The translations under genes and the position numbers were made by a program. Below are positions 47,792-51,440 of a stretch of 59,453 nucleotides of DNA, in pieces. The stretch's first letter is position 1. Each line of letters opens with the position of its first letter. Below the pieces are notes generated by a model. The model did no database searches. It had not been told where the DNA came from and worked only from the letters and a program-made list of their open reading frames with translations. The DNA comes from Octopus sinensis (lineage: Eukaryota). The stretch covers positions 1-59,453 of the forward strand of contig NW_021833100.1 of the NCBI RefSeq assembly GCF_006345805.1, written 5' to 3'.

Positions 47792-50700
47792 AAAGATAAA
47801 TGCGATACAATAAAATTAATTATAATCGCCGGTGTACCAGTACACGCCATATATTATACATATATCATTACATTCAAGGCGAAGAGTGCACTAGATACAC
47901 AATAGCTGGATAAATTTAGTGAGATGAAAATTAAAAACTTTTACAAACTTAACTTTTCTTATACTGCAGTTTCGCCAAATTCAGTAATAAAAATAGTATT
48001 TATTTACTCAGGCTGGCTCTTCAGTAAGATTCCTGTTAATGATGGGAAGACCATATCAATAGACCCATGTGCGTCTATCGAAATGCTCTTTCTAAACTAT
48101 TCAAAACACTGCGCAGACTCAGAACAAACCCGACAAAATAGGGGATTGTGGTATATCGTCTAACGGTCAGAAATTTATCGAGAGAATATGTAAACAAAGA
48201 TAAATGCGATACAATAAAATTAATTATAATCGCCGGTGTACCAGTACACGCCATATATTATACATATATCATTACATTCAAGCGAAGAGTGCACTAGATA
48301 CACAATAGCTGGATAAATTTAGCGAGATGAAAATTAAAAATTTTACAAACTTAACTTTTCTCTTATACTGCAGTTTCGCCAATTTCAGTAATAAAAATAG
48401 TATTATTTACTCAGGCTGGCTCTTCAGTAAGATTCCTGTTAAGATGGGAAGACCATATCAATAGACCCATGTGCGTCTATCGAAATGCTCTTTCTAACTA
48501 TTCAAACCACTGCGTAGACTCAGAACAAACCCGACAAAATAGGGGATTGTGGTATATCGTCTAACGGTCAGAAATTTATCGAGAGAGAGAATATGTAACA
48601 AAGATAAATGCGATACAATAAAATTAATTATTAATCGCCGGTGTACCAGTACACGCCTATATTATACATATATCATTACATTCAAGCGAAGAGTGCACTT
48701 AGATACACAATAGCGGGATAAATTTAGCGAGATGAAAATTAAAAACTTTTACAAACTTAACTTTTCTTATACTGCAGTTTCGCCAAATTCAGTAATAAAA
48801 TGTATTTATTTACTCAGGCTGGCTCTTCAGTAAGATTCTGTAATGATGGGAACACATATCAATAGACCCATGTGCGTCTATCGAGAATGCTCTTTCTAAA
48901 CTATTCAAAACACTGCGCAGACTCAGAACAAACCCGACAAAATAGGGGATTGTGGTATATCGTCTAACGGTCAGAAATTTATCGAGAGAATATGTAAACA
49001 AAGATAAATGCGATACAATAAATTAGTATAATCGCCGGTGTACCAGTACACGCCATATATTATACATATCATCATTCACAGCAAGCGAAGAGTGCACTAG
49101 ATACACAATAGCTGGATAAATTTAGTGAGATGAAAATTAAAAACTTTTACAAACTTAACTTTTCTTATACTGCAGTTTCGCCAAAAGTAATAAAAATAGT
49201 ATTTATTTACTCAGGCTGGCTCTTCAGTAAGATTCCTGTTAATGATGGAAGACCAATCCAATAGACCCAGTGCGGCTATCGAAATGCTCTTTCTAAACTA
49301 TCAAAACATGCGCAGGCTCAGAACAAACCCGACAAAATAGGGGATTGTGGTATATCGTCTAACGGTCAGAAATTATCGAGAGAATATGTAAACAAAGATA
49401 AATGCGATACAATAAAATTAATTATAGTCCCGGTGTACCAGTACACGCCATATATTATACATATATCATTACATTCAAGGCGAAGAGTGCACTAGATACA
49501 CAATAGCTGGATAAATTTAGTGAGATGAAAATTGAAAACTTTTACAAACTTAACTTTTCTTATACTGCAGTTTCGCCAATTCAGTAAAAAATAGTATTTA
49601 TTTACTCAGGCTGGCTCTTCAGTAAGATTCCTGTTAATGAGGGAAGACCATATCAATAGACCCATGTGCGTCTATCGAAATGCTCTTTCTAAACTATTCA
49701 AAACACTGCGCAGACTCAGAACAAACCCGACAAAATAGGGGATTGTGGTATATCGTCTAACGGTCAAAATTTATCGAGAGAATATGTAAACAAAGATAAA
49801 TGCGATACAATAAAATTAATTATAATCGCCGGTGTACCATACACGCCATATATTATACATATATCATTACATTCAAGGCGAAGAGTGCACTAGATACACA
49901 TTAGCTGGATAAATTTAGTGAGATGAAAATTAAAAACTTTTACAAACTTAACTTTTCTTATACTGCAGTTTCGCCAAATTCAATAATAAAAATAGTATTT
50001 ATTTACTCAGGCTGGCTCTTCAGTAAGATTCCTGTTAATGATGGGAAGACCATATCAATAGACCCATGTGCGTCTATCGAAATGCTCTTTCTAAACTATT
50101 CAAAACATTGCGCAGACTCAGAACAAACCCGACAAAATAGGGGATTGTGGTATATCGTCTAACGGTCAGAAATTTATCGAGAGAATATGTAAACAAAGAT
50201 AAATGCGATACAATAAAATTAATTATAATCGCCGGTGTACCAGTACACGCCATATATTATACATATATCATTACATTCAAGGCAAAGAGTGCACTAGATA
50301 CACAATAGCTGGATAAATTTAGTGAGATGAAAATTAAAAACTTTTACAAACTTAACTTTTCTTATACTGCAGTTTCGCCAAATTCAGTAATAAAAATAGT
50401 ATTTATTTACTCAGGCTGGCTCTTTAGTAAGATTCCTGTTAATGATGGGAAGACCATATCAATAGACCCATGTGCGTCTATCGAAATGCTCTTTCTAAAC
50501 TATTCAAAACACTGCGCAGACTCAGAACAAACCCGACAAAATAGGGGATTGTGGTATATCGTCTAACGGTCAGAAATTATCGAGAGAATATGTAAACAAA
50601 GATAAATGCGATACAATAAAATTATTATAATCGCCGGTGTACCAGTACACGCCATATATATACATATATCATTACATTCAAAGCGAAGAGTGCACTAGAT

Positions 50701-51440
50701 ACACAATAGCTGGATAAATTTAGTGAGATGAAAATTAAAAACTTTTACAAACTTAACTTTTCTTATACTGCAGTTTCGCCAAATTCAGTAATAAAAATAG
50801 TATTTATTTACTCAGGCTGGCTCTTCAGTAAGATTCCTGTTAATGATGGGAAGACCATATCAATAGACCCATGTGCGTCTATCGAAATGCTCTTTCTAAA
50901 CTATTCAAAACATTGCGCAGACTCAGAACAAACCGACAAAATAGGGGATTGTGGTATATCGTCTAACGGTCAGAAATTTATCGAGAGAATATGTAAACAA
51001 AGATAAATGCGATACAATAAAATTAATTATAATCGCCGGTGTACCAGTACACGCCATATTATTATACATATATCATTACATTCAAGGCAAAGAGTGCACT
51101 AGATACACAATAGCTGGATAAATTTAGTGAGATGAAAATTAAAAACTTTTACAAACTTAACTTTTCTTATACTGCAGTTTCGCCAAATTCAGTAATAAAA
51201 ATAGTATTTATTTACTGAGGCTGGCTCTTTAGTAAGATTCCTGTTAATGATGGGAGACCATATCAATAGACCCATGTGCGTCTATCGAAATGCTCTTTCT
51301 AAACATTCAAAAACACTGCGCAGACTCAGAACAAACCCGACAAAATAGGGGATTGTGGTATATCGTCTAACGGTCAGAAATTTATCGAGAGAATATGTAA
51401 ACAAAGATAAATGCGATACAATAAAATTAATTATAACGCC
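47788..51440 (-). mobile_element. Tandem array of nine 404-bp non-coding units plus a ~40-bp partial; candidate non-LTR retrozyme
   Basis: Unit starts (aaacaaagataaatgcg) at about 47788, 48192, 48597, 48996, 49390, 49788, 50191, 50594, 50995 and 51399; each full unit holds a minus-strand hammerhead motif. Confidence 0.8.
47957..48029 (-). ncRNA. Type I hammerhead ribozyme (unit 1; repeated in every unit)
   Basis: UCUUA-CUGAAGA-GCCA-[36 nt AU-rich stem extension]-UGGC-GAAAC-UGCA-GUA-UAAGA: complete core, 5-bp stem I, 4-bp base of stem II, palindromic ACUGCAGU stem III. Confidence 0.85.

Follow-up and report, generated by a model that had tools for sequence, protein, structure and literature searches.

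Non-LTR retrozymes, in the parts of the description by Cervera and de la Pena (2020, PMC7229834) that are cited here, consist of tandem non-coding units of a few hundred bp, with less than 50% GC and without LTR, and each unit carries one type I hammerhead ribozyme in which helix III comprises 2 bp and a tetraloop. Units of 350-390 bp are given for the Mytilus family, the mussel ribozyme has no canonical short loop 2, and the coral and mussel hammerheads, which have a 2-bp helix III, cleave as monomers (PMC7229834). Double hammerheads are encountered in newt and axolotl satellites, ASBVd, and Penelope-like elements, and share a short palindromic helix III/loop 3 by which tandem hammerheads can merge their helices (cited parts of PMC4209133, PMC6466107, and PMC3088659). 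Moreover, insertions of Penelope-like elements, as covered by the cited part of PMC8557442, occur in (TA)n targets, in which target-site duplications are hard to see, and they combine an inverted piece at the 5' end with ~40 bp beyond whole units and no clear target-site duplication. At the level of array evolution, incipient satellite higher-order repeats formed by unequal crossover carry diagnostic variants at a two-monomer lag. True higher-order repeat arrays reiterate many times.

This paper describes a retrozyme-like array in a stretch of 59,453 nucleotides from Octopus sinensis (contig NW_021833100.1), hereafter the window, and compares it with these systems. Two of its nine units carry a mutated hammerhead core, and the analysis concerns the origin of the variants that these units and their neighbours have in common, as well as the predicted processing of the transcript.

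Results

A Retrozyme-Like Tandem Array

The window is AT-rich, dense in microsatellites and retrotransposon fragments, and resembles a microsatellite-rich animal genome. It contains one array of the following extent:

47787..51440, ribozyme on the minus strand: retrozyme-like tandem array (TRF, blastn of unit 1)

The array has a period of 404 and 9.1 copies (TRF), corresponding to nine full non-coding units and a remainder of ~40 bp, and the unit length of 404 bp fits the range of ~150-450 bp of non-LTR retrozymes. No ORF of at least 120 aa was present in the array, no tRNA was found at it, and blastn of unit 1 detected no further copies of the unit elsewhere in the window. Unit 1 equals the majority consensus and was used as the reference for unit comparisons.

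Every unit displays type I hammerhead anatomy on the minus strand, with the core CUGAAGA intact in seven of the nine units and changed by G5A in the other two. Helix I comprises 5 bp, an internal loop, and 5 more bp, while helix II starts with GCCA/UGGC and is extended into a long imperfect hairpin; the motif further includes GAAA, a 2-bp helix III capped by a tetraloop, and the cleavage triplet GUA, which is found among natural hammerheads (PMC1636495, cited part). A type I hammerhead descriptor matched 7/9 units (units 1-6 consecutively) and no other place in the window, the misses being units 7 and 9, and it matched 0 of 20,000 dinucleotide-shuffled versions of the unit. A ribozyme on the opposite strand was ruled out, as the window held no plus-strand descriptor match. 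Rfam yielded no hammerhead at gathering score in the window and none at E up to 10 in units 6-7, where three unrelated chance matches (E 5.7-9.4) were found, and the ribozyme assignment therefore rests on anatomy. Metagenome contigs, searched for exact occurrences of a 23-nt stretch of the ribozyme, gave 0 matches. The features of the last four units are as follows:

49948..50038, minus strand: unit 6 type I hammerhead, core intact, C3 at 50023 (descriptor match, helices)
50352..50442, minus strand: unit 7 type I hammerhead, G5A core (50425)
50366..50373, minus strand: stem III/loop 3 of unit 7, 2 bp and tetraloop forming an 8-nt perfect palindrome, ACUGCAGU
50753..50843, minus strand: unit 8 type I hammerhead, core intact, C3 at 50828, A17 at 50766 (descriptor match)
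51157..51247, minus strand: unit 9 type I hammerhead, G5A core (51230), cleavage site intact, A17 at 51170

Unit 6 is predicted to be cut 3' of A17 at 49961 (triplet GUA), and in unit 7 (A17 at 50365) the cleavage site, stems, and palindrome are all intact. Circular monomers folded no better than shuffled sequences (z -1.3 and -0.8, 30 shuffles each), and the isolated ribozyme region gave a z of -0.58.

The array shares with the non-LTR retrozymes of PMC7229834 its tandem non-coding organization, unit size class, GC content below 50%, lack of LTR, single type I hammerhead per unit, and short helix III, and with the mussel ribozyme the absence of a canonical short loop 2; it also fits the animal non-LTR retrozyme description in the cited part of bioRxiv 10.64898/2026.07.22.740005. 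It differs in having a helix II that forms a long imperfect hairpin and in lacking an Rfam match, and the cited parts of PMC7229834 describe no arrays that alternate intact and mutated cores. By this anatomy the array is classed as a putative family of an already known kind, new as far as the Rfam and literature searches reach.

Insertion Junctions and Flanking Sequence

The array is bordered by three features:

47748..47788, at the 3' end of the ribozyme strand: (TA)n microsatellite forming the left junction, with microhomology to the unit
51437..51457, at the 5' end of the ribozyme strand: right junction, a C-run and a ~10-bp inverted copy of the element's end
51458..53540, adjoining the array on the right: imperfect 2.1-kb fold-back, a degenerate (TA)n tract flanked by arms of ~130 bp

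Neither array end falls on a cleavage site, the distances to the nearest sites being 175 and 270 nt. No target-site duplication was seen at the array junctions, such duplications being an optional feature of non-LTR retrozymes. With the Penelope-like insertions of PMC8557442 the locus shares the (TA)n target, the inverted piece at the 5' end, the ~40 bp beyond whole units, and the lack of a clear target-site duplication. In contrast to Penelope-like elements, the array element contains no reverse transcriptase, just ~10 bp of it recur in inverted orientation, and the longer inversion duplicates flanking sequence rather than the element. The likeness of the junctions suggests that a Penelope-type reverse transcriptase may have carried out the insertion; the mobilising element was not found. 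The arms of the fold-back copy the downstream flank, and its tract is rich in C on the left and in G on the right, the skew reversing at the middle. The structure represents either a duplication in inverted orientation that arose with the insertion or a fold-back product of long-read sequencing. Taken as a whole, the locus may well be a young insertion, within a (TA)n microsatellite, of a repeat that resembles the non-LTR retrozymes of animals, an assignment held with moderate confidence.

Other repeats were observed in the window. Just left of the array, at 47500-47681, inspection by eye revealed a MITE-like element of ~180 bp with long terminal inverted repeats. Positions 26591-27459 contain 2.9 copies of a 300-bp unit with (TTA)n runs between them, of which the third copy has a CTGATGA motif and no hammerhead descriptor match, and a reverse-transcriptase fragment (Pfam RVT_1) lies near this repeat at 25254-25796. 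At 6795-7878, two similar minus-strand frames stand beside (ATT)n tracts; these have no Pfam match, and we see in them a likeness to the C-terminal end of non-LTR retrotransposons with a restriction-like endonuclease.

Three Linked Variants Occur in Two Copies

An earlier reading made from the sequence only had pointed to variants shared by alternate units, and these are indeed present, grouped as follows:

50108..50425: variant block, first copy, with C>T at 50108 (unit 6), and G>A at 50284 and C>T at 50425 (unit 7)
50913..51230: variant block, second copy, with C>T at 50913 (unit 8), and G>A at 51089 and C>T at 51230 (unit 9)

Units 6 and 8 have intact cores, as had been stated, and the C>T at 50425 and 51230 is the announced change of CUGA to CUAA on the minus strand in units 7 and 9 (G5A; CUGAAGA to CUAAAGA, 2/9 units). 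This mutation is reported to abolish hammerhead cleavage, and its designation as a known inactivating change agrees with the cited part of PMC4027429. At all three sites the lag between the block copies is 805 bp, three 1-bp deletions between the copies accounting for the difference from the ideal 2 x 404 = 808.

The recurrence supports the variants of the proposed ~808-bp AB-AB period, at a lag of 805, but it extends no further than a single block found twice, with a consensus stretch in between; from the first to the last of its three variants this block spans 318 bp, less than one unit. Written in the other register, the unit order is five times consensus, then B, consensus, and B, with B for the block. 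A dimer period predicts a variant at eight positions in units 1-5; seven of these show the consensus, and the eighth falls in unit 4 on a 1-bp deletion that is ambiguous, since it could derive from either allele. The cores of units 1-5 are intact, and no mutated core occurs left of unit 7 in either parity. The period is thus neither reiterated past two copies nor carried through the array. The locus resembles incipient satellite higher-order repeats in its diagnostic variants at a two-monomer lag, and differs from true higher-order arrays in having only two copies and three diagnostic sites.

The three shared changes are all C:G>T:A transitions, one of them at a CpG, and all three copy a neighbouring base and thereby extend a base run. 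This last property, together with the error hot-spots of the array (see below), would be expected if the shared changes were recurrent, context-driven consensus errors without a common origin. However, simulated independent substitutions reproduced the shared pattern in 0/200,000 runs, and in 184/200,000 runs under the worst case of G/C sites and transitions only, while hand arithmetic gives ~(2/36)^2 = 0.003 for three hot-spots, each striking two units, landing in the same two blocks, which makes recurrent error very improbable. Since simulations so rarely reproduce the pattern, the two variant blocks are considered, on this comparison of their sequences, to have a common origin.

Accuracy of the Array Sequence

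Compared with unit 1, the other units show 69 difference events, comprising 36 deletions, 10 insertions, and 23 substitutions, and 27 of 42 one-base indels lie within homopolymers. Units 2-5 account for 50 events and units 6-9 for 19, of which nine are indels. A recurrent hot-spot has lost one G in units 2, 3, and 4 and shows G>A in unit 8, and two other deletions each recur in the array. Units 2 and 3 share a T>C (48323/48728) at a lag of one unit, and the recurrent G site falls within 48281-48728 and at 49084; these changes reflect either a duplication at lag 1 or a site prone to error. Polishing of the array is visibly incomplete. The view that its indels are long-read noise gains from the deletion bias and the link to homopolymers, but their restriction to units 2-5 does not hold, given the 19 events in units 6-9. 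Similarly, the shared variants can be called real in the sense that they go together and do not stem from independent noise (no more than 184/200,000 runs), whereas sharing as such shows common origin only: an out-of-register assembly would look identical, and sharing does not prove that both blocks exist in the genome.

Such an artefact would imply that the genome contains a single block, or one per allele with the unit number differing between alleles, and that reads were joined or polished with an offset of two units, in which case unit number and order would be unreliable. Deletion-biased, homopolymer-linked errors throughout units 2-9 next to a perfect unit 1 are in line with it, as is the degenerate 1.8-kb (TA)n inside the adjoining fold-back, which few long reads may span. 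On the other hand, units 6-7 have four private events and units 8-9 have nine, none of which are common to both, so the second dimer is no literal copy of one consensus stretch. Moreover, an array of 3.7 kb is short relative to usual long reads, which also counts against the artefact. Overall, we regard an assembly artefact as rather unlikely, and a true duplication of the block as the better reading.

Representation of the Family in Public Contigs

From the public runs only contigs were used, and those of four of the 20 listed runs, originating from four studies, were aligned to the right junction and to unit 9. At 51230, 12/12 contigs of the four runs carry the letter of the intact core, contigs being known to drop rare variants, and at 51089 5/5 contigs carry the consensus; no T was listed at the third variant site in the contigs of the four runs. 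The G5A variant does not represent the common form of the family, and the contigs show no more than that. The best of the 20 listed runs contained 0.77 of the block's sampled words, where 0.75 is expected if only variant-free words are present. Unit 9's four indels and one private substitution were read as consensus by the public contigs, a further point in favour of long-read noise among the indels and of the artefact discussed above.

In all four runs contigs close on themselves with a 404-nt cycle, a result in which array and circle are indistinguishable. The depth ratio of unit contigs to flank contigs was ~26 and ~28 in two runs, which is not a copy number. At the right junction, 51442-51457 had no cover and no joining contig in the four runs, whose samples may lack the locus; in one run, contigs on 51458-51506 continue into sequence found beyond 53540. 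No RNA dataset was on record, and the 24 listed rows all represent contigs.

Diverged relatives of the unit and other junctions are also present in the public contigs. Contigs over 51098-51246 represent further subfamilies that share the ribozyme region and all keep G5, among them a 59-bp piece with six differences, whose depth in three runs is similar to that of the main unit, and a diverged relative with GUC instead of GUA at the cleavage site. A contig over 51393-51434 contains a diverged relative that starts from (TA)n near the unit position of this array's left junction, and this similar start point suggests a fixed priming point; further contigs likewise leave the unit into (TA)n.

Predicted Processing and a Possible Double Hammerhead

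The palindrome ACUGCAGU is unchanged in 9/9 units, and because stem III is an 8-nt palindrome, a double hammerhead between tandem units is possible. The short palindromic helix III/loop 3, 8 bp here, is the same feature as in the double hammerheads of newt and axolotl satellites, ASBVd, and Penelope-like elements (cited parts of PMC4209133, PMC6466107, and PMC3088659). From the order of the strands it can be deduced that the merged junction would join one unit's core to the other unit's cleavage site, and such cleavage across units is plausible. In a folding model that omits tertiary contacts and magnesium, the double form lay ~12 kcal/mol below two single forms (constrained folding) and, at 37°C, 4.5-6.7 kcal/mol below one single form in 3/3 linear pairs; it lay 5-6 kcal/mol above the unconstrained ensemble, and in a dimer circle it was approximately equal to one single form. 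Unlike the described double hammerheads, the helix III found here has 2 bp, and as this class cleaves as a monomer in coral and mussel, a dimer may not be obligatory here.

The mode of cleavage would determine the products of a minus-strand read-through transcript. Cleavage at own sites would yield one 805-nt dimer, from the unit 8 site to the unit 6 site, and five monomers, whereas cleavage at neighbouring sites would yield one 805-nt dimer, from the unit 9 site to the unit 7 site, and six monomers; with both modes active, eight monomers and no dimer would result. As the array ends at 51440 and no ribozyme lies upstream of unit 9, there would be at most one 805-nt dimer per transcript. The expectation that this part of the array is processed into dimers rather than monomers was therefore overstated, the prediction being at most one dimer with five or six monomers. 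The division into live and dead ribozymes also took no account of the double hammerhead, by which a core would act on the adjacent unit and the sites of the "dead" units 7 and 9 would be the ones cut.

Discussion

The best reading of the two block copies, held with moderate confidence, is a local two-unit duplication. After or late during insertion, a 318-bp stretch would have gained three C:G-to-T:A substitutions, one of which struck G5 by chance, and a single out-of-register event, two units long, would then have copied this stretch once. Unequal exchange, gene conversion, or a reverse transcriptase that re-primes two units back are candidate routes, and unequal crossover is the stated model for retrozyme array expansion in the cited part of bioRxiv 10.64898/2026.07.22.740005. 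With all three variants in one 318-bp block and intact cores in units 1-5, one duplication suffices, and the substitution shared by units 2 and 3 at lag 1 is what local turnover would give. Three random substitutions strike an invariant core base in ~8% of cases, and hence the G5 change needs no selection. Array anatomy, variant linkage, and the extent of two copies are observed, and the mechanism of the duplication is what we infer.

Several points weigh against a local duplication. A two-unit offset would presumably be less usual than an offset of one unit, and the under-polished array adjoins the noisy 2.1-kb fold-back, with shared changes of a type often found among long-read errors. Moreover, the core strike that amounts to ~8% under duplication is demanded if a dimer served as template, which corresponds roughly to a likelihood ratio of ~12 for the latter; this ratio is weakened because the locus was picked for the core mutation itself.

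The sequence-only reading had proposed that a dimer of one live and one dead ribozyme was the amplified template, generated either from a dimeric circle by rolling-circle reverse transcription or by unequal crossover. The crossover option fits the data, but the dimer as amplified template does not agree with the intact cores of units 1-5: rolling-circle copying of a dimeric circle predicts alternation throughout, and with units 1, 3, and 5 (and 2 and 4) intact it is unsupported. A modified version, which we consider improbable, would have G5A lock the RNA as a ~808-nt dimeric circle, cut once and re-ligated once per round whichever cleavage mode applies, that was reverse-transcribed for a little over two rounds, with units 1-5 either copied from a monomer until the template was switched or homogenised later. 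This version gives the core-killing change a role, agrees with array ends that lie 175 and 270 nt off the cleavage sites, as copying of circles or multimers gives, and is accompanied by an ambiguous deletion in unit 4 at a position where a variant is predicted. A dimer circle can host a single or double hammerhead at 6-8 kcal/mol above its predicted minimum, it would stay a dimer under either cleavage mode alone, which makes the idea mechanistically possible, and an axolotl retrozyme forms circular dimers in vitro (PMC7229834, cited part). Nevertheless, it requires the template switch or later homogenisation as an extra event, 7/8 predicted positions in units 1-5 are consensus with no mutated core left of unit 7, the common form in public contigs has a monomer period and an intact core, and the dimer would resolve into monomers if both cleavage modes work. 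In its fullest form the idea would be that the dead unit survives via its live partner, G5A fixing a live/dead dimer circle of ~808 nt that is opened once per round and rolling-circle reverse-transcribed, thereby writing the higher-order repeat into the genome; we hold this to be more doubtful still.

Titles and the starts of abstracts revealed no literature on alternating intact and mutated hammerheads in one array; texts beyond these may describe the family or the pattern. The cited part of PMC2808323 contains nothing on dimers. Mutant-dimer tests have reportedly been done on newt and ASBVd RNA.

On the most likely reading, a local duplication of the block, the locus adds a further family to the retrozyme-like repeats, together with a minor duplication inside the array, which matters little. 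If the dimer circle were true, the array would provide sequence evidence for the proposed but unshown step from circle to tandem cDNA in the spread of retrozymes, and it would connect ribozyme loss with the origin of a higher-order repeat, a process that may set the period of a satellite. If the double hammerhead were true, a live core would cut the site of the dead unit, and the locus would constitute a natural cross-cleavage test. Finally, whichever reading holds, units 6-9 represent a natural construct in which cleavage at a unit's own site and at its neighbour's site can be separated by the position of the cut.
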